From: Pasteurellaceae bacterium Orientalotternb1
GTDB lineage: Bacteria; Pseudomonadota; Gammaproteobacteria; Enterobacterales; Pasteurellaceae
Direction: 5' to 3'
Assembly: GCA_011455275.1 (NCBI GenBank)
Contig: CP015028.1
Coordinates: 592,911-656,910, forward strand
DNA: 64,000 nucleotides
The notes under the pieces were generated by a model. The model searched no databases and was not told where the DNA came from. It saw only the letters and a list, made by a program, of their open reading frames with translations. The translations under genes and the position numbers were made by a program. Positions 11,936 through 63,978 of the stretch are shown here, piece by piece. The stretch's first letter is position 1. Each line of letters begins with the position of its first letter.

Positions 11936-12023
11936 GTAGGGTGGGTCTTGACCCACCATTTGTAAAATTTTTCCAAAAAGTAACCGCTTGTAAATAACAA
12001 AGGTGGGGCAAGCCCCACCCTAC
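11936..12023. repeat. MITE-like palindromic element, family B copy 1 (GTAGGGTGGGTCTTGACCCACC ... USS ... GGTGGGGCAAGCCCCACCCTAC)
   Basis: The termini are inverted repeats of each other, and each terminus is itself a hairpin. There is an internal AACCGCTTGT USS. A second copy lies at 60135..60227. Confidence 0.6.
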
Positions 12024-12033
12024 AAGGTATGAT

Positions 12034-20567: not shown

Positions 20568-20706
20568 AATTTAGTATGGGAATTCAAAAATGAGAACTAG
20601 ATCACGAATTTCTTGATGGGGTATGAGAAGGGGGAATGATGCTTCTTGTGATGTAATAAATAAAGATACCGCTGAAAAATTCCATTTACTTAATGAGGAA
20701 CATACA

Positions 20707-21891
20707 ATGAAAAAATTAACGAACACAGCTTTAGCCGTTCTTGCAGGTTTATTTGTCGCACAAGGCGTAAGTGCAAAAATTGTAGAAGGGCAATTAAATA
20801 TTTGGATTAATGCAGATAAAGGCTACAACGGCTTAGCCGAAGTAGGTAAGCAATTTGAAGCGGAAACGGGTGTGAAAGTGGTAGTTGAACACCCGAGTAA
20901 GTTAGAAGAACTTTATCCGCAAGTTGCGTCAACAGGTGATGGTCCAGATATCATTATTTTCGCTCACGACCGTTTCGGTGGTTATGCACAAGCAGGCTTA
21001 TTAGCCGAAGTGCAGCCGTCTGCAGAATTTAAAGCGAAATTGTCTGACATCGGTTGGGAAGCAACCAAATACAAAGGTAAACAAATTGCTTATCCAATTG
21101 CAATTGAATCCCTTTCTTTAATTTACAACAAAGACTTGGTGCCAACTCCACCGAAAACTTGGGAAGAAGTAGAAAAATTAGATAAAGAATTGCGTGCCAA
21201 AGGCAAAACCGCCATTATGTGGAACTTAGCAGAGCCATATTTCACTTGGCCAATCGTGTCATCACAAGGGGCTTATGCGTTCAAAATGACGCCAAATGGT
21301 TATGATGCGAAAGACATTGGCGTAAACAACGATGCGGCACAAAAAGGCTTACAATTTGTGGTTGATTTGGTGAAAAATAAAGTGATCAGTGCCGATATGG
21401 ATTACTCTGTAGCTGAAGCATCATTCAACAAAGGTAACACGGCAATGACGATTAACGGTCCTTGGTCTTGGGCAAATATCGAGAAAAGCGGCATTAACTA
21501 TGGCGTGGCGGTATTACCAACCTTAAACGGCAAAGCGTCTAAACCATTCGTTGGCGTACTTAGTGCAGGGGTGAACTCGGCTAGTCCGAACCAAGATCTT
21601 GCGAAAGAGTTCTTAGAAAACCACTTGCTGACGGATATGGGGTTAGAAACCGTGAATAAAGATGCTCCACTTGGTGCCGTAGCATTAAAAAGCTATCAGG
21701 CGAAATTAGCATCTGATCCACGTATTGCAGCAACTATGCAAAATGCAGAAAACGGTGAAGTGATGCCAAATATCCCGCAAATGAGCCGTTTCTGGTACTC
21801 TGAAAAAGCGGCAATCAATGCGGCGGTAACAGGTCGTCAGTCAGTGAAAGCTGCACTTGATGAAGCTCAAGCAAAAATTGAGAAAGAGTAA
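20707..21891 (+). CDS. malE: Maltose/maltodextrin-binding periplasmic protein
   Basis: Signal peptide [23 protein letters not shown] then [28 protein letters not shown], highly similar to MalE. GAGGA RBS. The ORF-track start at 20623 is an upstream extension. Confidence 0.9.
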
Positions 21892-21897
21892 AATATA

Positions 21898-22037
21898 ATT
21901 CTGCCCCGCTTTAGCGGGGGAAGTGGTTGAGCGGAGCGAAACCGAAGGGGGAAAATTGCAAAATTTTTTGAAAATCTGACCGCTTGTTCCCCCTACCCTG
22001 CCTACGGCAGTACCTCCCCCGCAAGCGGGGGCAGAAT
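21898..22037. repeat. MITE-like element family A copy 1 (ATTCTGCCCCGCTTTAGCGGGGGAAG ... internal USS ... CCCCCGCAAGCGGGGGCAGAAT)
   Basis: The terminal inverted repeats are the same as those flanking the DUF559 gene at 63500..63978. The right half matches the long 54-bp TIR. Lies between malE and malF. Confidence 0.7.
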
Positions 22038-22106
22038 GTATTCTTACAAGCGGTTATTTTCCCAATAAATTCCATTCCTACCAGCAGTAAACAAAAGGAA
22101 CATTCG

Positions 22107-23663
22107 ATGTTATCCATGACCCAACTAACACTCTCGCCCGCTCAAGTTTGGAGCAAAAGAGCTTTTGTGGGGCTGCTCTATTTTATTTCGTTTTATCTTG
22201 TTTTCACTATTTATCTGCAAGGTGAAATTCTTTTCGCATTGTTAGCGTTGGTTGTAGTGACGTCGGGTATTTATATTTTTAGCAATCAAAAAACTTACCG
22301 CTGGCGTTATCTCTACCCAGGTGTTGCTGCAATTGGCATTTTTGTAGTGTTTCCATTACTTTGTACGGTAGTGATTGCCTTTACCAATTACAGCGGTACG
22401 AACCAATTAAGCTATGAACAGGTGCTTAAACAGCTGCAAAGCCAACGTTATTCTGCAGGTGAGAAGTTTGAGTTCAAACTGTTTGATGCAGGTAATGGGC
22501 AATACCAATTAGCATTTAGTAATCCAAAATCACAAAAAAATTACCTTTCTGAACCGCTTGCAGTAGAAAATTTGGCAGGTGATGTGGCGGTGAAAGAGAG
22601 TGAATCTCTGCCAACTTCTGCGGTTGCACCACTAAAAGTGATTACCCAGAACCGTACCAAATTACAAGGCATTACCGTTGGGTTGCCAACGGGCGAAAGC
22701 TTATCAATGAGTGGGTTACGACAGTTTGCGGAACTCAAACCACGCTATAAATTTGAAGATAGCCTAGAAGAACTCACCAATATGGAAACGGGCAAAGTTT
22801 ACCGCCCGAATAATGATATCGGCTTCTTCCAAGAGATTGATTCTCAAGGTAATTTTGTTGGTGAACGTTTAGAGCCTGGTTATACCGTGGTGACTGGCTG
22901 GCAAAATTTTGTGAAAATCGTAACTAATAAAGGTGTGCAGGGGCCGTTCATTAAAATCTTTATCTGGACGGTGACATTCGCCTTTTTAACGGTGATTTTC
23001 ACTACGCTACTTGGTATGATTTTTGCCTCCTTAGTGCAATGGGAACCGTTGAAAGGCAAAGCCACTTACCGCTTGTTACTGATTTTGCCGTATGCTGTTC
23101 CTGGCTTTATCTCTATTTTGGTATTCAAAGGTTTGTTCAACCAAAGTTTCGGGGAAATCAACCTAATCTTAAATAACTTGTTTGGTATCCGTCCTGAGTG
23201 GTTTAACGATCCGACCTTAGCGAAAATGATGTTGTTGATTGTTAATACGTGGTTGGGATATCCGTATATGATGATCGTTTGTATGGGCTTGCTCAAGGCA
23301 ATTCCACAAGACTTATATGAAGCTTCGGCGATTGACGGTGCGACCGTTTGGCAAAACTTCACCCGCATTACAATGCCATTATTGATTAAACCATTAATGC
23401 CGTTGATGATCGCCAGTTTCGCCTTTAACTTTAACAATTTCGTATTGATTCAATTATTAACCGTGGGTGGACCGAATATGGTTGGCACCACTACACCAGC
23501 AGGACATACTGACTTGTTAGTGAGCTATACCTACCGCATTGCCTTTGAAGGTAGCGGTACTCAAGATTTCGGCTTAGCCGCAGCGATTTCAGTGATTATC
23601 TTCTTACTGGTCAGTGCGTTAGCCTTGTTCCAAATCCGTTTGACGAAGTTGTCGAATGAGTAA
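22107..23663 (+). CDS. malF: Maltose ABC transporter permease MalF
   Basis: 518 aa from the ATG at 22107. Has the large periplasmic P2 loop and the EAA motif region (EASAIDGATVWQNFTRITMPLL). Confidence 0.9.
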   Translation: MLSMTQLTLSPAQVWSKRAFVGLLYFISFYLVFTIYLQGEILFALLALVVVTSGIYIFSNQKTYRWRYLYPGVAAIGIFVVFPLLCTVVIAFTNYSGTNQLSYEQVLKQLQSQRYSAGEKFEFKLFDAGNGQYQLAFSNPKSQKNYLSEPLAVENLAGDVAVKESESLPTSAVAPLKVITQNRTKLQGITVGLPTGESLSMSGLRQFAELKPRYKFEDSLEELTNMETGKVYRPNNDIGFFQEIDSQGNFVGERLEPGYTVVTGWQNFVKIVTNKGVQGPFIKIFIWTVTFAFLTVIFTTLLGMIFASLVQWEPLKGKATYRLLLILPYAVPGFISILVFKGLFNQSFGEINLILNNLFGIRPEWFNDPTLAKMMLLIVNTWLGYPYMMIVCMGLLKAIPQDLYEASAIDGATVWQNFTRITMPLLIKPLMPLMIASFAFNFNNFVLIQLLTVGGPNMVGTTTPAGHTDLLVSYTYRIAFEGSGTQDFGLAAAISVIIFLLVSALALFQIRLTKLSNE

Positions 23664-23673
23664 TTAGATCATA

Positions 23674-23806
23674 ATTCTGCCCCCGCTTTGCGGAGAAGTA
23701 CCTTGCGAAGCAGGAGGCAGACAAGCGGTCAGATTAAAGTAAAATTTTACAAATGCCCCCTTCGGCTCGTTTCACTCGCCACTTCCCCCGCAAGCGGGGG
23801 CAGAAT
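23674..23806. repeat. MITE-like element family A copy 2 (malF|malG intergenic)
   Basis: ATTCTGCCCCCGCTTTGCGGAGAAGTACC ... GACAAGCGGTCAGATTAAAGTAAAATTTTACAAA ... CCACTTCCCCCGCAAGCGGGGGCAGAAT. Confidence 0.7.
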
Positions 23807-23826
23807 GAAATAAAAAGGATACTACT

Positions 23827-24716
23827 ATGGCAATTGTCCAACCCAAATCAATGAAAGTGCGGTTATTTGCCACCCACTTTTTTCTTATCACCTTTTGTGT
23901 GTTGATTATGTTCCCATTATTTATGATTTTGGGTATTTCCCTTCGCCCTGGGAACTTAGCCTTAGGGGAACTGATCCCTAGCCAAATTTCCTTTGAACAC
24001 TGGAAATTAGCTCTCGGTTTTAGCGTCACCAACCCTGACGGTACTGTGACCCCCCACCATTTCCTGTTTTATTATGGCTGTGGAATTCAGTAAAAGTAGC
24101 AGGTATCACTGCGTCGATTATTCTAGTTTTATCCACTACAGCCGCCTACGCTTTTGCTCGTTTCCGTTTTGCGGGCAAAAAAGTGTTAATGCAGAGTATG
24201 TTGATTTTCCAAATGTTCCCTGCGGTACTTTCCTTAGTGGCGTTATATGCGTTGTTTGACCGCTTGAGCGATTATATTCCGTTCTTGGGCTTAAATACTC
24301 ACGGCGGTGTGATTTTCGCTTACTTGGGAGGGATTGCTATGCACGTTTGGACGATCAAAGGTTATTTTGAGACGATCGACAACTCTCTTGAAGAAGCAGC
24401 AGCCCTAGACGGTGCAACCCCGTGGCAGACTTTCCGTTTGATTTTATTACCACTTTCCGTACCGATTTTGGCGGTAGTGTTTATTCTTGCTTTCATCGCC
24501 GCTATCATCGAAGTGCCAGTCGCATCGCTCTTATTGCGTGATGTGGATAACTACACCCTAGCCGTGGGAATGCAGCAATATCTCCACCCACAAAACTACC
24601 TGTGGGGTGACTTCGCTGCCGCTGCGATTCTTTCTGCAATCCCAATCACCGTAGTGTTTATCATCGCACAACGCTGGCTAGTTGGCGGTTTAACCGCTGG
24701 TGGGGTGAAGGGCTAA
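23827..24716 (+). pseudogene. malG: malG (maltose ABC permease) interrupted by a -1 frameshift in a C6 tract
   Basis: N-terminal 74 codons match MalG ([14 protein letters not shown]...DGTVTP). The frame is lost at CCCCCC (24050-24055), where an in-frame MalG needs C7 ([12 protein letters not shown]). The remainder of MalG (…[41 protein letters not shown]… to GGVKG) continues in the -1 frame to 24716. Confidence 0.7.
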
Positions 24717-24724
24717 AAGAACAG

Positions 24725-24862
24725 ATTCTGCCCCCGCTTTGCGGGGGAAGTACCTTGCGAAGCAAGGGATTGGGGGAGCAAGCGGTCAGATTAAAGTAAA
24801 ATTTTACAAATGCCCCCTTCGGCTCGTTTCACTCGCCACCCCCCCGCAAGCGGGGGCAGAAT
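24725..24862. repeat. MITE-like element family A copy 3 (malG|malQ intergenic)
   Basis: Near-identical to copy 2, including the internal extended USS. Confidence 0.7.
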
Positions 24863-24901: not shown

Positions 24902-26893
24902 ATGAACCAACAACACCCATTTATCAATCCCTACTTTATTGATGAACACGGCGAGAAAGTTCGCCCAGAGCCTGAAGTTTATGCCAAAATCGCAGAGCTA
25001 TTAGGTGAGCCGAAAGCAGTTGGCGTTTTACCGCCAGTAAAAGTCGCACAACAAGGCGAAGCGGTGGCGTTCACCTTGCCAAAAAACAGCACAAAAAGCT
25101 GGCAGCTTACCCTTGAAAAAGGTCAAGTTTTAACAGGGAAATGCAAAAAAGATCAGCTTACATTGCCATCGGATTTACCCCTTGGCTACCACCAACTCAA
25201 TTTTGACGGTGCGGTTTGCCGTGTGATTATCACCCCTGAAACCGCTTTCCAACCTGTTGAATTACAACAGAAAAAGAAATTATGGGGATCGATTTTACAG
25301 CTTTACACCCTACGTTCTGAGCAAAACTGGGGGATCGGTGATTTCGGTGATTTGCAACAATTCTTAGTTAAACTGGCGGAAAAAGGCGGTGATTTTGTTG
25401 GTTTAAACCCAATTCACTCCCTTTTTCCAGCTAATCCTGAAGGGGCAAGCCCGTATAGCCCGTCTTCTCGTTTATGGCAAAACATCATCTACATCAACGT
25501 GCCAGCTATTGACGCTTTCCGCCAAAGTGCTGAAGCAACAGCGTGGTTCTATTCCGATGCGATCCAGCAACAGCTAAAAGACGCTCGCCAAAAAGATTAT
25601 GTCGATTATTCGCAGGTGATGTGGCTGAAATTAGCGGGCTTACGCTTTGCTTATAAACAGTTCAAATTGCAAGATCAAACCGCTTTCGAGCAATTTATCG
25701 CCGAAAATGGCGAATCGCTCAAGGTGCAGGCGACTTTTGATGCCTTGCACGAATGGCTTTCTTCCCAATTTACTGATCAATATGGTTGGTCTTCGTGGGA
25801 AGCAAAATTCCAAGATTATCAGACCGCTTGTGTTGCTGAATTCCAAAATGATCAAGCAGAATTAGTTCGCTTCCATATGTGGCTACAATTTGTCGCACAG
25901 CAACAGCTCAAAACCTGTAATGAACTGGCGAAACAGCTACAAATGCCAATCGGTTTCTACCGCGATTTAGCCGTTGGCGTGGCAGATAACGGGGCAGAAA
26001 CTTGGGCGGACAAAGAGCTTTATGTGCTCGGGGCATCGGTGGGGGCACCGCCAGATATTTTGGCTCCACAAGGACAGAACTGGGGCTTGTCGCCAATGCA
26101 CCCTGAAGTGCTTGCTGAGCGTGGCTATCAGCCGTTTATCGACTTATTGCGTGCCAATATGAAAGATTGTGGGGCGTTGCGTATCGACCATATTCTTGGC
26201 TTTGCGAGAATGTGGTGGGTGCCAAAAGGCGACTCGGCGAAAAATGGTGTGTATGTGAAATATCCGTTGGAAGATTTGCTTTCGATCTTGGCATTAGAAA
26301 GCCAACGCCATCAATGTTTGATCATCGCCGAAGCTCTCGGAACCGTGCCAGATGGAATGTTGGAATCCCTTGAAAGCAAAGGCATTTTAGCCTACAACAT
26401 TTTCTATTTTGAGTATGAAGAGGGCGAAAGCAAACCGCTAGCGAACTACCCATACCAAGCGATGACCACCCTTAGCACCCACGATTTACCCACGGTGCAA
26501 GGCTACTGGAAAACCTACGATTTTGAGTTAGGGCAGCGTTTTGATGTCTATCCAAACCCTGAAGTGCTTGAACAGCTCTACAAAACTCGCCACGAAAACA
26601 AACTGAAAATTCGTGCAGCGGTGGAAGCGGTACAAGAACTGGAGCCAGATTATTATGGCATTACCCAAAACTTCAATCACCAGCTACAAAGCTATGTGGC
26701 AGACACCAACAGTGTGCTATTTGGTACACAACCAGAGGATTGGCTAAATATGTTGGAACCAGTGAATATCCCTGGCACTAGCACCGAATATCCAAACTGG
26801 CGACGTAAACTCAGCCGTACCGTCAGTGACATTTTTGCCGACGAATCGGTACAAAAATTGCTTGAAACAATTGAGCAAAAACGCAATCCGTAA
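24902..26893 (+). CDS. malQ: 4-alpha-glucanotransferase (amylomaltase)
   Basis: 663 aa, GH77 family, with conserved regions including IDHILGFARMWWVP. Confidence 0.9.
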   Translation: MNQQHPFINPYFIDEHGEKVRPEPEVYAKIAELLGEPKAVGVLPPVKVAQQGEAVAFTLPKNSTKSWQLTLEKGQVLTGKCKKDQLTLPSDLPLGYHQLNFDGAVCRVIITPETAFQPVELQQKKKLWGSILQLYTLRSEQNWGIGDFGDLQQFLVKLAEKGGDFVGLNPIHSLFPANPEGASPYSPSSRLWQNIIYINVPAIDAFRQSAEATAWFYSDAIQQQLKDARQKDYVDYSQVMWLKLAGLRFAYKQFKLQDQTAFEQFIAENGESLKVQATFDALHEWLSSQFTDQYGWSSWEAKFQDYQTACVAEFQNDQAELVRFHMWLQFVAQQQLKTCNELAKQLQMPIGFYRDLAVGVADNGAETWADKELYVLGASVGAPPDILAPQGQNWGLSPMHPEVLAERGYQPFIDLLRANMKDCGALRIDHILGFARMWWVPKGDSAKNGVYVKYPLEDLLSILALESQRHQCLIIAEALGTVPDGMLESLESKGILAYNIFYFEYEEGESKPLANYPYQAMTTLSTHDLPTVQGYWKTYDFELGQRFDVYPNPEVLEQLYKTRHENKLKIRAAVEAVQELEPDYYGITQNFNHQLQSYVADTNSVLFGTQPEDWLNMLEPVNIPGTSTEYPNWRRKLSRTVSDIFADESVQKLLETIEQKRNP

Positions 26894-26902
26894 ATGTAAA
26901 AA

Positions 26903-26929
26903 ACCGCACTGATGTGCGGTTTTTTGTGT
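26903..26929. terminator. Bidirectional terminator between convergent malQ and accC
   Basis: aaaaaccgcac-tgat-gtgcggtttttt. Confidence 0.6.
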
Positions 26930-37157: not shown

Positions 37158-38354
<1,197 letters not shown>

Positions 38355-38389
38355 TTAATCGCAGTTAATTACTTGAAAGCATAAAGAAA

Positions 38390-38416
38390 GGCGTATCGAA
38401 AGGTACGCCTTTTGGT
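38390..38416 (+). terminator. tufA rho-independent terminator (GGCGUAUC-GAAA-GGUACGCC + U-run)
   Basis: An 8-bp stem with a GNRA tetraloop, followed by ttttggttttg. The identical sequence recurs inverted at 39712..39740 after tufB. Confidence 0.6.
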
Positions 38417-38477
38417 TTTGGGCAGCCGCAAGCGGTCACTTTATGATAAAATTTTGCAAGTTGACATTTGCAAAATA

Positions 38478-39662
38478 TTACTGGGAACTGACCGCTTGTA
38501 GATTAAGCCTTTTTCTTGAATGAAGAAAGAATACCAATGCTACAGCACCACTTAAACAAGAAATCCCAAAGGCAAACAAAGAGAGTTTCTGAACCATAAA
38601 ATAGCCAATCAGGTACAACATTGGTAATGAAAAGAGAGAATCAAAAGCTGACATAATTGATTCAGATGTTGCTCTAGTTTCTTGCTTGATATTATCGTGG
38701 AAATTCGCACTGAAAAATATACTAAGTAACCCTACGCAAAAAACATGAGCCATAAGCAATAGCGATAGAATCCACATTGAGCTTGTAAATACTGGCATTA
38801 ATATCATTGCAGCGATGTTTATTAGCATCACCCTTACTCGCTGCTTTTCCGTAAATTTCATTACTCGAACAAATTTTCCTGCACTGAGCATTGCTATTTG
38901 TAACATTAAATACCCACATTCAATGCCATAAGGAAACTGTTTGAAAAGATGTTGCCAGAGTAAAAATGGTGCGAGTGCTGATGAAGCATAAAAGACACTC
39001 GCCCAGAAAAATGATTGACGGCTGAGCGTGGCAATCAGCGGCAAAATTGAATGAACTTGCAGCCTCTCTTTGCTTTCAAATAGATAATCTTTTCGATAAT
39101 AAAATAAGATCACTGCAGAGATGGTATAGGCAAGAGCGGAATAGATCCAAGGGTATTGGTTATTATGTTTGAACAAATAATAGGCACCCATTCCACCAAG
39201 AATAGCTCCAGCACTTCGATAGGTTACACTTAATGAAAAGAGTTTTTCGGTTGAACCTTTAAAGGAAGATTTCAACCCCACTAAAACGGCATTCGCTGCC
39301 CCTGAAATCAAAGAAAGTCCGATACCATAAGTGATCATTGAGCTTTCCAATCCATAAGAAAAGTTGGATAACAATAAGAGTCTTGAGCCGATAATTATCA
39401 GTAATCCTATTACAACCGCATTGATGGGCTTGATTTTATCTGTTAAAAAGCCCGTCGGGATTTCACAAATTAAGATGAACAAATTGAGCAGAATAAACAG
39501 AATGGAAATGGTCTGGAAATTCAATCCTTTATCTAAAAAGTACAAAACGTTCACCGCAGCATAAGCCCCATAGCCTATGGCGGAAAATAAAATGGTGTAG
39601 AGATAACGTTGGATCTGAATTGGCATAAAATTATTGCTTACTGTCTTTAAATAATTTTTCAT
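38478..39662 (-). CDS. Major-facilitator-superfamily-like permease, low-GC gene between the two tuf copies
   Basis: 394 aa, about 12 predicted TM segments, with an MFS-like loop motif (EIPTGFLTDKIKP). Codon usage is very AT-rich compared with its neighbours. The last 7 codons run through a USS. Confidence 0.6.
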   Translation of the reverse strand: MKNYLKTVSNNFMPIQIQRYLYTILFSAIGYGAYAAVNVLYFLDKGLNFQTISILFILLNLFILICEIPTGFLTDKIKPINAVVIGLLIIIGSRLLLLSNFSYGLESSMITYGIGLSLISGAANAVLVGLKSSFKGSTEKLFSLSVTYRSAGAILGGMGAYYLFKHNNQYPWIYSALAYTISAVILFYYRKDYLFESKERLQVHSILPLIATLSRQSFFWASVFYASSALAPFLLWQHLFKQFPYGIECGYLMLQIAMLSAGKFVRVMKFTEKQRVRVMLINIAAMILMPVFTSSMWILSLLLMAHVFCVGLLSIFFSANFHDNIKQETRATSESIMSAFDSLFSLPMLYLIGYFMVQKLSLFAFGISCLSGAVALVFFLHSRKRLNLQAVSSQ

Positions 39663-39775
39663 TTCTCAATTTGCAAAATTTTATCATAAAGTGACCGCTT
39701 GCTGTTGCCCAAAACAAAAAGGCGTACCTTTCGATACGCCTTTCTTTATGCTTTCAAGTAATTAACTGCGATTAA

Positions 39776-40987
<1,212 letters not shown>

Positions 40988-41080: not shown

Positions 41081-41156
41081 TGGTGCTGATAGGCGGATTT
41101 GAACCGCCGACCTCACCCTTACCAAGGGTGCGCTCTACCAACTGAGCTATATCAGC
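41081..41156 (-). tRNA. thrT: tRNA-Thr (anticodon GGU)
   Basis: The reverse complement folds as GCTGATATAGCTCAGTTGGTAGAGCGCACCCTTGGTAAGGGTGAGGTCGGCGGTTCAAATCCGCCTATCAGCACCA. Confidence 0.9.
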
Positions 41157-41159
41157 GTT

Positions 41160-41234
<75 letters not shown>

Positions 41235-41274
41235 TGTTCTAAATTCGTCTGTCCCATAGAATTCAATTAAGAGA

Positions 41275-41361
41275 TGGTGGAGGGAGAAGGATTCGAACCT
41301 TCGAAGGCTGAGCCAACAGATTTACAGTCTGCCCCCTTTGGCCGCTCGGGAATCCCTCCAC
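41275..41361 (-). tRNA. tyrU: tRNA-Tyr (anticodon GUA), long variable arm
   Basis: GTGGAGGGATTCCCGAGCGGCCAAAGGGGGCAGACTGTAAATCTGTTGGCTCAGCCTTCGAAGGTTCGAATCCTTCTCCCTCCACCA. Confidence 0.9.
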
Positions 41362-41392
41362 ATTAATTGAATGCTTGATTACTTTGGCGAGA

Positions 41393-41468
<76 letters not shown>

Positions 41469-60134: not shown

Positions 60135-60227
60135 TGTAGGGTGGGGATTGACCCACCATTGTGATTTGCAAAACTTTCGCAGAATCTGACCGCTTGTTTT
60201 GCTCTCGGTGGGGCAAGACCCACCCTA
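60135..60227. repeat. MITE-like palindromic element, family B copy 2
   Basis: GTAGGGTGGGGATTGACCCACCATT ... GACCGCTTGT ... GGTGGGGCAAGACCCACCCTAC. Same architecture as 11936..12023. Confidence 0.6.
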
Positions 60228-62507: not shown

Positions 62508-63488
62508 ATGACACAATTTACCCTTGACCAAATTTCCGCCCTTGCCAAAAATGATATGCAAGCGGTCGATACCGCTATTCTTGCCCAACTCAATTCTGAT
62601 GTGGTGCTGATCAATCAGCTCGGGCATTATATTATCAGTGGTGGCGGCAAGCGAATTCGCCCGTTGATTGCCGTACTTGCGGCAAGAGCCTTGGGCTATC
62701 AAGGGCAGGAACACATCACCTGTGCAGCCTTTGTCGAGTTTATTCATACGGCAACGTTGCTACACGATGACGTGGTGGACGAGTCCGATATGCGGCGGGG
62801 TAAGGAAACAGCGAATGCTCGTTTTGGCAATGCGGCAAGCGTGTTGGTTGGCGATTTTATCTACACCCGAGCCTTCCAAATGATGACCAGCCTTAACTCG
62901 TTGCCTGTGTTGAAAGTGATGTCGGACGCCACCAACGTGATTGCCGAAGGTGAAGTCCAACAGCTGATGAATATCAACGACCCTGACACCACCGAAGAGA
63001 GCTATATGCAGGTGATTTACAGCAAAACCGCCCGCTTGTTTGAAGCCGCCACCCAATGTGCGGCGTTGGTGGCGAATGCGAGCGAAGCGGAAGTGGTAGC
63101 CTTGCAGAATTATGGTCGCTATCTCGGCACGGCGTTCCAGTTGGTTGACGATATTTTAGATTACAGTGCCAATGCGGAGAAACTTGGCAAAAATATCGGC
63201 GATGATTTAGCCGAAGGCAAGCCAACGTTACCGCTACTGCACGCAATGCGAAACGGCACCCCGCAACAAGCCGCCCTAATTCGTGAAGCGATTGAGCAAG
63301 GCGGAAAACGTGATTCGCTTGATGAAATTTTAGCGATTATGGCAGAGCAAAAATCTCTAGATTACACGATGCAACGAGCCAAACAAGAAGCTCAAAAAGC
63401 CGTTGATGCCATTGCAATGTTGCCAGAGAGTGAGTTTAAGACAGCGTTGACATCGTTGGCGTATTTGTCGGTGGATAGAAATTACTAG
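62508..63488 (+). CDS. ispB: Octaprenyl-diphosphate synthase
   Basis: 326 aa with the two aspartate-rich motifs DDVVDESDMRRG and DDILD. Confidence 0.9.
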   Translation: MTQFTLDQISALAKNDMQAVDTAILAQLNSDVVLINQLGHYIISGGGKRIRPLIAVLAARALGYQGQEHITCAAFVEFIHTATLLHDDVVDESDMRRGKETANARFGNAASVLVGDFIYTRAFQMMTSLNSLPVLKVMSDATNVIAEGEVQQLMNINDPDTTEESYMQVIYSKTARLFEAATQCAALVANASEAEVVALQNYGRYLGTAFQLVDDILDYSANAEKLGKNIGDDLAEGKPTLPLLHAMRNGTPQQAALIREAIEQGGKRDSLDEILAIMAEQKSLDYTMQRAKQEAQKAVDAIAMLPESEFKTALTSLAYLSVDRNY

Positions 63489-63499
63489 TTTGAACTAAA

Positions 63500-63978
63500 A
63501 TTCTGCCCCCGCTTGCGGGGGAAGTACCGCCGAAGGCGGGGTAGGGGGTAAAATGAAAAATTTCAGAAAAGCTGAAACAGAAACCCTAATCCATTACCAA
63601 AAATTTCTACGCAAAAATATGACTTTTGAAGAAGTTCTGTTATGGCAGGAAATTCGTAAAGGTCGTTTAAGTCGCTTTCGAATACGGCGACAAGCCATTG
63701 TTGCAGGATACATTGTTGATTTTGCTTGCTTGCCTGCAAAGCTGATTATTGAAGTGGACGGTGAACAGCATTTTGATCCCGAAATACTTAAATATGATGA
63801 AAATCGAACACTAACTTTAAACCAATTAGGATTTCAAGTACTACGGTTTACCAATAGCGAAATTAAAACACAACTAGATAACGTATTAGATGAGATCTAT
63901 TTCCATCTGAATAATAAAACCTAATTTTGCCCCCTACCCCGCCTTCGGTGGTACTTCCCCCGCAAGCGGGGGCAGAAT
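63500..63978 (+). mobile_element. Compact TIR-bounded cassette: 53-bp TIR-L / DUF559 nuclease gene / 54-bp TIR-R
   Basis: TIR-L (63500..63552) ATTCTGCCCCCGCTTGCGGGGGAAGTACCGCCGAAGGCGGGGTAGGGGGTAAA is the near-perfect reverse complement of TIR-R (63925..63978) TTTTGCCCCCTACCCCGCCTTCGGTGGTACTTCCCCCGCAAGCGGGGGCAGAAT. The ORF fills the interval exactly from start to stop codon. Confidence 0.75.
63553..63924 (+). CDS. DUF559 (PF04480) Vsr-like / PD-(D/E)xK endonuclease-fold protein
   Basis: 123 aa with a conserved core YIVDFACLPAKLIIEVDGEQH (D...ExD...H) typical of DUF559. Low GC. Confidence 0.75.
   Translation: MKNFRKAETETLIHYQKFLRKNMTFEEVLLWQEIRKGRLSRFRIRRQAIVAGYIVDFACLPAKLIIEVDGEQHFDPEILKYDENRTLTLNQLGFQVLRFTNSEIKTQLDNVLDEIYFHLNNKT

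Follow-up and report, generated by a model that had tools for sequence, protein, structure and literature searches.

The mal operon of Pasteurellaceae bacterium Orientalotternb1 holds odd intergenic blocks: malE, malF, malG and malQ are separated by gene-less palindromic repeats of about 135 nt each, here called c1, c2 and c3, one per gap. What are these blocks, how did they come to lie there, and do they matter to the genes around them? We addressed these questions in the 64-kb stretch of DNA that carries the operon (the window) and in corresponding loci of relatives. The three elements are DNA repeats with conserved hairpins, and their ends are common to a mobile cassette that encodes a DUF559 protein; elements of this type have been gained, lost and collapsed between close relatives. 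We consider it fairly probable that c1, c2 and c3 belong, as gene-less and non-autonomous members, to a composite palindromic repeat family that is paired with the DUF559 nuclease, by a logic like that of repetitive extragenic palindromic (REP) doublets (REPINs) and REP-associated tyrosine transposases (RAYTs), and that transcribed copies become stem-loops in mRNA. Such a family would explain the odd blocks of this operon.

Gene calls based on NCBIfam equivalogs place malE at 20623-21891 (NF007011, 1.3e-204), malF at 22107-23663 (NF008232, 1.9e-246), malG at 23827-24716 (a split open reading frame, ORF) and malQ at 24902-26893, all on the plus strand. Because these calls bound c1 (21898..22037, 140 nt), c2 (23674..23806, plus strand, 133 nt) and c3 (24725..24862, plus strand, 138 nt), every gap of the operon is occupied, as an earlier note on this DNA had claimed; its coordinates held. 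The elements begin 6 nt (c1), 10 nt (c2) and 8 nt (c3) past the TAA of the upstream gene, leave the ribosome-binding site of the next gene free and contain no ORF of note. The 21-mer terminus CCCCGCAAGCGGGGGCAGAAT, with up to three mismatches, has six sites in the window against 0.00 expected, and all six fall at the three mal elements or at an end of the DUF559 cassette, which bears out the note's view that the termini are those of the cassette.

Each element is built from modules. The inverted-repeat ends are perfect for about 26 nt only, comprising ATTCTG, a terminal GC hairpin (CCCCCGCTTGCGGGGG, here P1) and AAGT. Inward of this point the arms differ, with an 'A' hairpin in one and a distinct 'B' hairpin in the other. 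On the plus strand, c1 consists of P1 (21904-21920), B (21925-21943), a G5 tract (21944-21951), the reverse complement of an uptake signal sequence (USS, 21978-21987), a C5 tract (21988-21995), the A hairpin (21996-22014) and P1' (22016-22031); its canonical A-to-B order reads on the minus strand. In c2 the order is P1 (damaged, 23680-23695), A (23701-23714), USS (23721-23730), C5 (23755-23765), B (23764-23780) and P1' (23785-23800), and in c3 it is P1 (24731-24747), A (24753-24767), G5 (24771-24778), a USS-like sequence (24778-24787), C5 (24812-24822), B (24821-24837) and P1' (24839-24856).

Comparison of the three copies separates c1 from the other two. Over 54 nt, the right arm of c1 matches the cassette's right arm at 87% identity and complements the cassette's left arm at 89%, and the note was right that c1 keeps the longer arm interior. 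The similarity of c2 and c3 is lower than the roughly 95% it had put forward: 91.4% over the full length counting indels, with 97% over the right 67 nt. Their near-identity is confined to the right two-thirds; the left terminal hairpin of c2 is damaged (GCGGAG) and this copy has no G5 tract. As c1 runs inverted relative to the other two and also differs from them in A/B subtype, the mal operon was colonised at least twice, and the sequences show that c1 arrived separately from c2 and c3.

The cassette that shares these ends lies 39 kb from the mal elements, at 63500-63978 (479 nt), and carries the sole DUF559 gene bracketed by such arms. Its left arm (63500..63553, plus strand) reads ATTCTG, P1, AAGT, A hairpin, GTA and G5; the ORF of 123 aa (63553..63924, plus strand, Pfam PF04480) follows; and the right arm (63925..63978, minus strand) is an inverted copy of the left. 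The arms (58 nt) are 97% complementary. The ORF takes the place of the variable centre of an element, and the G5 tract lies 4 nt before the DUF559 start codon (ATG) and resembles a Shine-Dalgarno sequence. The ORF is co-directional with an ispB-like gene at 62508-63488. The protein matches PF04480 with an E-value of 1.1e-35 (122 bits against a cutoff of 20.6) and PDB entry 3HRL, a Neisseria 'endonuclease-like protein', at 4.2e-23, and 16 diverse homologues all share its residues D56, E67, D69 and H73. These similarities indicate that it is a member of the Vsr-fold PD-(D/E)XK nuclease family. The source record names the product of 63553-63924 'DNA methyltransferase', a label that, given the Pfam and PDB matches to a Vsr-fold nuclease, looks like a misannotation and should serve annotators as a warning.

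The site of the cassette varies across four species, with four loci and arms always present. Both the window and L066, a 78%-identical relative, have it after ispB; it adjoins a queH-like gene in the metagenome-assembled genome (MAG) S17M_Sa_43, lies between phosphotransferase system (PTS) and beta-galactosidase genes in Ursidibacter arcticus, and occupies the pilA-pilB gap in Glaesserella parasuis. In all four species it is co-directional with its neighbours. Strains of G. parasuis (L058-L065) have a variable number of extra arm copies beside the cassette in the pilA-pilB gap, with gap lengths between 174 and 340 nt on its upstream side and between 332 and 563 nt on its downstream side. Searches of plasmid and phage collections matched neither c3 nor the cassette.

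Is the occupation of the mal gaps recent and changing? The note had suspected ongoing mobility or gene conversion, and the mal loci of relatives reveal polymorphism and turnover. Two relatives (L052 and L155) have mal genes that are 90-92% identical in nucleotide sequence to those of the window. In both, the malE-malF gap lacks c1 and holds a pair of GTAG-type REPs, and the malF-malG gap holds a decayed orthologue of c2, 78% identical, with broken palindromes. The third gap is covered in L155 only, as the L052 contig ends within malG, and there a 30-nt solo hairpin (AAGTCTGCCCCCACTAAAGCGGGGGCAGAAT) stands in place of c3, with flanks identical to those of c3 and no duplication. This solo hairpin with its identical flanks fixes the element boundaries precisely. 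More distant relatives have other contents. The malF-malG gap is empty, at 16 nt, in both U. arcticus and U. maritimus. The malE-malF gap of U. arcticus contains an unrelated palindromic family, which recurs in U. maritimus with a degenerate left arm. In the malG-malQ gap, U. arcticus has a copy of the family that is turned the other way and differs in its centre, and U. maritimus a single GTAG REP. In the relative RH1A, other families fill the first two gaps, and the third holds an element like the BoxC or triplex-motif (TM) repeats, based on the same CCCCCGCTTGCGGGGG hairpin; all three gaps of MAG S17M_Sa_43 hold other families.

Two features of these comparisons bear on how copies change. 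First, c2 is a mosaic: it shares an orthology mark (GGCAGACAAGCGG) with the L052/L155 orthologue, and over its right 85 nt it hardly differs from c3, a pattern that fits gene conversion or local copying. Second, solo hairpins of 27-30 nt, made of ATTCTG, one P1 and CAGAAT, occur at the c3 site of L155 (5932-5961) and in U. arcticus (L046, 7529-7555); they are either collapsed elements or empty targets.

How might a nuclease be connected with this turnover? We propose that the DUF559 protein would recognise extruded hairpins, or a cruciform, of the arms in trans and nick or cut them. Repair could then copy from another element or switch templates, the P1 hairpins offering short homology, and would fill solo hairpins or new sites; slippage between direct CCCCCGC repeats might collapse full copies to solos. 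To this combination of DUF559 cutting and copying by templated repair we give a little less than an even chance.

The main rival to a partner nuclease is a homing-type passenger. On this account, the repeats owe their spread to something else (replication slippage, host recombination, transformation or another enzyme), DUF559 is a passenger or selfish gene of the homing type, and the gene-less copies are its targets and not derivatives of the cassette. The same clade of DUF559/Vsr nucleases includes a homing endonuclease (table in PMC3424549); a gene inserted between the halves of a palindromic target would also have inverted flanks, the ORF does occupy the exact centre of an element, and solo hairpins exist. 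In that clade, I-Bth0305I and the Vsr mismatch nickase set a precedent for enzymes of this fold that cut at specific sites or structures and that behave selfishly, although bracketing by hairpin repeats and gene-less satellites are not known for these enzymes. Yet a homing gene faced with many identical targets should occupy several of them, and there is one cassette per genome in the fetched data, at one and the same locus in all G. parasuis strains. The ORF is also tightly integrated with its arms, with the G5 tract as ribosome-binding site in distant lineages too. We therefore regard the homing account as unlikely, if far from negligible, and prefer the DUF559 protein as partner of the repeats.

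If the repeats form a family, copies should be found well away from the mal operon. A scan of the terminus against one genome per species recovered many copies in MAG S17M_Sa_43, several in U. arcticus and, unexpectedly, matches in Dialister. The family is present in at least three Pasteurellaceae genomes, whose loci yielded 19 distinct two-ended gene-less copies of 119-155 nt and one more composite copy of 203 nt. All extracted copies have the same module order and a variable centre: invariant termini ATTCTG...CAGAAT, P1 at both ends, one extra hairpin per arm (type A or B), G5 and C5 tracts and, in this genome, a USS in the centre. The A hairpin is a simple stem with a GNA loop (GAA-type), followed by GTA-GGGGG, and the B module has a GGC/GCC or GGTT/AACC stem, a 2x2 tandem G.A internal loop, a 2-bp stem and a triloop.

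The hairpins are conserved as structures. In an alignment of 17 sequences, pairing in the P1, B and P1' hairpins extends to 97.8% of the cells, and 17 cells show double changes; none of 500 shuffles reaches the covariation score, and slid controls are about 50% paired. RNA and both DNA strands fold far better than shuffles (z from -4.7 to -6.4), so structure alone cannot tell whether DNA or RNA is the selected form. As RNA, c1 folds at -67.2 kcal/mol (z -5.3), c2 at -56.7 (z -5.6) and c3 at -71.0 (z -5.7). Compensatory changes in three hairpins would suit a structured non-coding RNA or riboswitch, or a part of one. We consider the probability of this next to negligible: Rfam found only tRNAs in the window at gathering level, and only tRNAs and glycine riboswitches, none at the elements, at E<=1 in five loci with family members. 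The copies moreover lie in both orientations in unrelated operons, the two DNA strands fold equally and the centre is unconserved.

The conserved arms and unconserved centre also bear on the idea that the elements are vehicles for uptake signals, kept because they promote the uptake of mal DNA. Exact copies of the 9-mer USS core ACAAGCGGT lie in c1 (minus strand, 21979-21987) and in c2 (23721-23729), and the core in c3 (GCAAGCGGT) has one mismatch, so the note's statement that c2 and c3 both carry a complete USS holds for c2 and fails by one base for c3. The window has 30 exact copies of this Apl-type core against 0.44 expected. U. arcticus copies have no USS in their centre, however, several MAG copies have USS-like variants only, and what is conserved is the arms. 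A USS vehicle is on this evidence very unlikely. About 20 copies of the USS in the window have a 34-nt extended form ending in AAAATTTTGCAAAT, and a second USS lies just outside c1 at 22046-22054, inverted relative to the inner one.

The family has a strikingly uniform niche. All 18 gene-less copies that could be classified sit between co-directional genes, with none in convergent or divergent gaps, a distribution with a probability of about 0.002 if some 70% of neighbouring gene pairs are co-directional, as assumed here. The usual copy lies 0-21 nt past a stop codon and 12-40 nt ahead of the next start. The mal operon is thus one case of a general habit and not special. GC-rich hairpins directly after stop codons might suggest intrinsic terminators or attenuators between the mal genes. 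This is extremely unlikely, since a scan for terminators and promoters gave no signal at c1, c2 or c3, no T-run follows any of them, either orientation occurs, and the only terminator-like site of the operon lies past malQ, at 26894-26929.

What, then, might the elements do in mal transcripts? Because it is transcribed inside the operon, each copy should form a very stable stem-loop, and one placed after malE, malF and malG could slow 3'-to-5' decay of the upstream mRNA segment. The element in the malE-malF gap of Escherichia coli offers a parallel, as that REP (bacterial interspersed mosaic element, BIME) occupies the same operon junction and also forms a stable stem-loop just after malE. Its sequence is unrelated, and here the malF-malG and malG-malQ gaps are filled too. 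Work by Newbury et al. in 1987 is said to have made the E. coli element the classical precedent of an mRNA stabiliser. E. coli REP RNA is still in use as a structured exonuclease substrate. That stem-loops of -57 to -71 kcal/mol act here as exonuclease barriers, like the E. coli REP, is a tentative proposal that we rate as rather less probable than its opposite.

A stronger version would make this the chief reason for their presence, with the elements selected mainly as cis-acting sequences that stabilise mRNA segments, or mark them for processing, and so fix the amount of MalE relative to MalF/G, and with their resemblance to the DUF559 arms reduced to a matter of origin. Besides the E. coli precedent, the very stable folds and the placement 6-10 nt past the stop codon with the next ribosome-binding site free, it can draw on the fact that every relative examined has some stable palindrome in its mal gaps, drawn from at least four unrelated families. 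Against selection of this type stand the empty malF-malG gap of both Ursidibacter species and the sister lineage that tolerates decayed and solo versions. The family also occurs in many unrelated operons and in both orientations, from which it follows that any RNA role must be orientation-independent. We judge this version somewhat unlikely and keep to a mobile repeat family whose transcribed copies probably also act as stem-loops in mRNA.

Several observations weigh against a repeat family paired with the DUF559 nuclease and should temper confidence in it. We know of no strand-transfer activity for a Vsr-type nuclease. Target-site duplication is absent at 23 of 23 copies, with no flanking direct repeat. 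Both orientations relative to transcription occur, at about 12:4, a ratio that is not significant and rests on crude ORF calls; the calls behind the whole gene-context analysis are of the same kind. The alignment of A-hairpin cores (15 distinct) gives 98.7% paired cells, 13 double-change cells and none of 500 shuffles as good, and it was trimmed by hand because MAFFT left it out of register, which biases it towards structure. Copy number in the genome of the window is known for these 64 kb only. Finally, tblastn and profile searches found no DUF559 gene in the fetched Dialister loci despite at least 16 terminal 22-mers there.

The Dialister matches are of a distinct form. Dialister succinatiphilus and two Dialister MAGs (L007-L050, L022, L035, L038) have at least 16 one-armed units ending in the 22-mer CCCCCGCAAGCGGGGGCAGAAT, with A- and B-like hairpins, set in long mosaics of UUCG-loop hairpin modules. 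These loci gave no tRNA and no Rfam match. The possibility of a tRNA-like unit was rejected, as ARAGORN was negative and the unit is not unusually stable.

To which class of repeats do the elements belong? The note had called them like miniature inverted-repeat transposable elements (MITEs), and part of this stands: they are gene-less, dispersed and polymorphic, with inverted ends. With bacterial MITEs such as Correia/NEMIS, ERIC/IRU and RUP they share size, terminal inverted repeats, the lack of coding capacity, positions within operons, polymorphism in presence or absence and, once transcribed, long RNA hairpins. In the strict sense the term lacks support, as there is no target-site duplication, no known transposase-encoding parent and no sequence kinship that we could find; the cassette has the ends of c1, c2 and c3, and DUF559 is not a known transposase. 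The likeness to REPINs and RAYTs is closer. Both systems have short hairpin units in inverted pairs of about 100-150 nt with compensatory changes, many gene-less copies and one gene per genome bracketed by inverted repeat copies, and both are extragenic yet transcribed (here between co-directional genes). The gene differs, being a DUF559 PD-(D/E)XK (Vsr-fold) member here and not a Y1 HUH tyrosine transposase. REP ends carry a GTAG or CGTC tag (PMC3733652), which this family lacks, having ATTCTG/CAGAAT termini and two or three hairpins per arm.

With BoxC/PIT/TM repeats the family shares a G/C-rich hairpin, a 2-3-nt spacer and a G tract, occurrence singly or in inverted pairs, and local instability. 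The window arms differ in having stems of mixed C/G and not homopyrimidine composition, extra A/B hairpins and fixed ATTCTG termini. The strict consensus of that class, CCCTCNCCC-N3-6-GGGNGAGGG-N3-GGGNGAGGG, has no match in the window, its arms included, and the arms of the window and of G. parasuis also fall outside the relaxed TM definition (a homopyrimidine/homopurine hairpin with an adjacent G tract, which gives triplex potential), to which the malG-malQ element of RH1A conforms. As the TM patterns do not fit and there is neither a GTAG tag nor a RAYT gene, we file the ATTCTG family in neither the TM nor the REP class.

The association of DUF559 genes with hairpin arms extends far beyond the Pasteurellaceae. 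Among 63 metagenomic DUF559 loci with enough flank, inverted arms bracket the gene in 51 (81%) at an inverted-repeat score of at least 14, and in 34 at a score of at least 20. Among controls, the lower score was reached by 2 of 173 shifted windows and by 4 of 156 other small ORFs (1-3%), and the higher score by none. Distant homologues checked individually (Roseiarcus, Mucilaginibacter, Candidatus Taylorbacteria and Prevotella) have inverted arms of 38-83 nt, and a check of the same kind confirmed the arms in Glaesserella. The relaxed TM definition fits 40 of the 51 bracketing arms against 2 of 120 control segments. The DUF559 gene of E. coli K-12 is ycjD (NC_000913.3, 1351041-1351840; L074), and 168 nt beyond it on the downstream side is TM #9 of Holder et al., in inverted orientation. 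The gene has a degenerate BoxC/TM hairpin across its stop codon, a duplicated piece of its C-terminal coding sequence farther downstream, and a perfect 17-nt palindrome with ATTCTG/CAGAAT just upstream of its start.

The BoxC/PIT repeats of E. coli and Haemophilus influenzae date back to the 1990s as a known class and, to our knowledge, have had neither a function nor an associated enzyme. In the literature searched, no paper draws a link between inverted or palindromic repeats and DUF559, Vsr-like proteins or ycjD, and the same is true of the REPIN/RAYT papers. BoxC/PIT/TM repeats of E. coli, H. influenzae and Synechocystis occur in inverted pairs and have been tied to local instability, and the authors of the TM survey report that remnants of transposases or integrases were never found near TM repeats (PMC4666352). 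Small DUF559 nucleases of the YcjD type may be the missing partners of BoxC/PIT/TM-type hairpin repeats, forming a second system like REPIN-RAYT across phyla, with the ATTCTG family as an elaborated branch for operon spacers between stop codon and ribosome-binding site; in such a system, hairpins would be cut by the nuclease once extruded, and the repair that follows would lead to copying or collapse of the elements. We offer this broader proposal with reserve and lean somewhat against it. If true, it would supply a testable candidate enzyme for the BoxC/PIT repeats and a function for the very common 'unknown' DUF559 family.

Other repeats frequent the same spacers. GTAG-tagged REP palindromes (GTAGGGTGGGG... 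and similar) lie in the window at 11988-12024 and 60135-60171, and occur in the malE-malF gap of L052 and L155 and in mal gaps of L054 and L156; they are unrelated to the ATTCTG family and compete for the same kind of intergenic site. A third palindromic family (CTCCCCTCTTT..AAAGAGGGG-CAGGGGGAGATTTGA ... inverted) is found in the malE-malF gap of U. arcticus, U. maritimus and RH1A (L051 5232-5401; L053 5760-6000; L156 2255-2383), with a design of hairpin plus G tract like that of DUF559-type arms. Operon-internal spacers are thus colonised time and again by competing repeat families, which can alter mRNA structure and gene dosage between close relatives.

The remaining observations concern the genes of the window. 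The minus-strand neighbours of malE-malF-malG-malQ are lamB and malK, both with NCBIfam equivalog matches. An exact protein match assigns the window to Pasteurellaceae bacterium Orientalotternb1; an exact look-up of its MalE returned no record. The split of malG into ORFs 23827-24093 and 24183-24716 is due to a 1-nt deletion in a C-run near 24048-24053 (GTGACCCCCCACC in the window against GTGACCCCTCCGCC in the closest relative); the gene is whole, at 296 aa, in five relatives, and the split may be either a pseudogene or a homopolymer sequencing error. Elsewhere, a 1308-nt inverted repeat of 99% identity corresponds to two tuf copies, at 37169-38476 and 39654-40961, one after a fusA-like gene and the other adjoining four tRNA genes (41084-41468). 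Because the inverted tuf copies flank a 394-aa ORF (38478-39662), the segment between them could invert by recombination.

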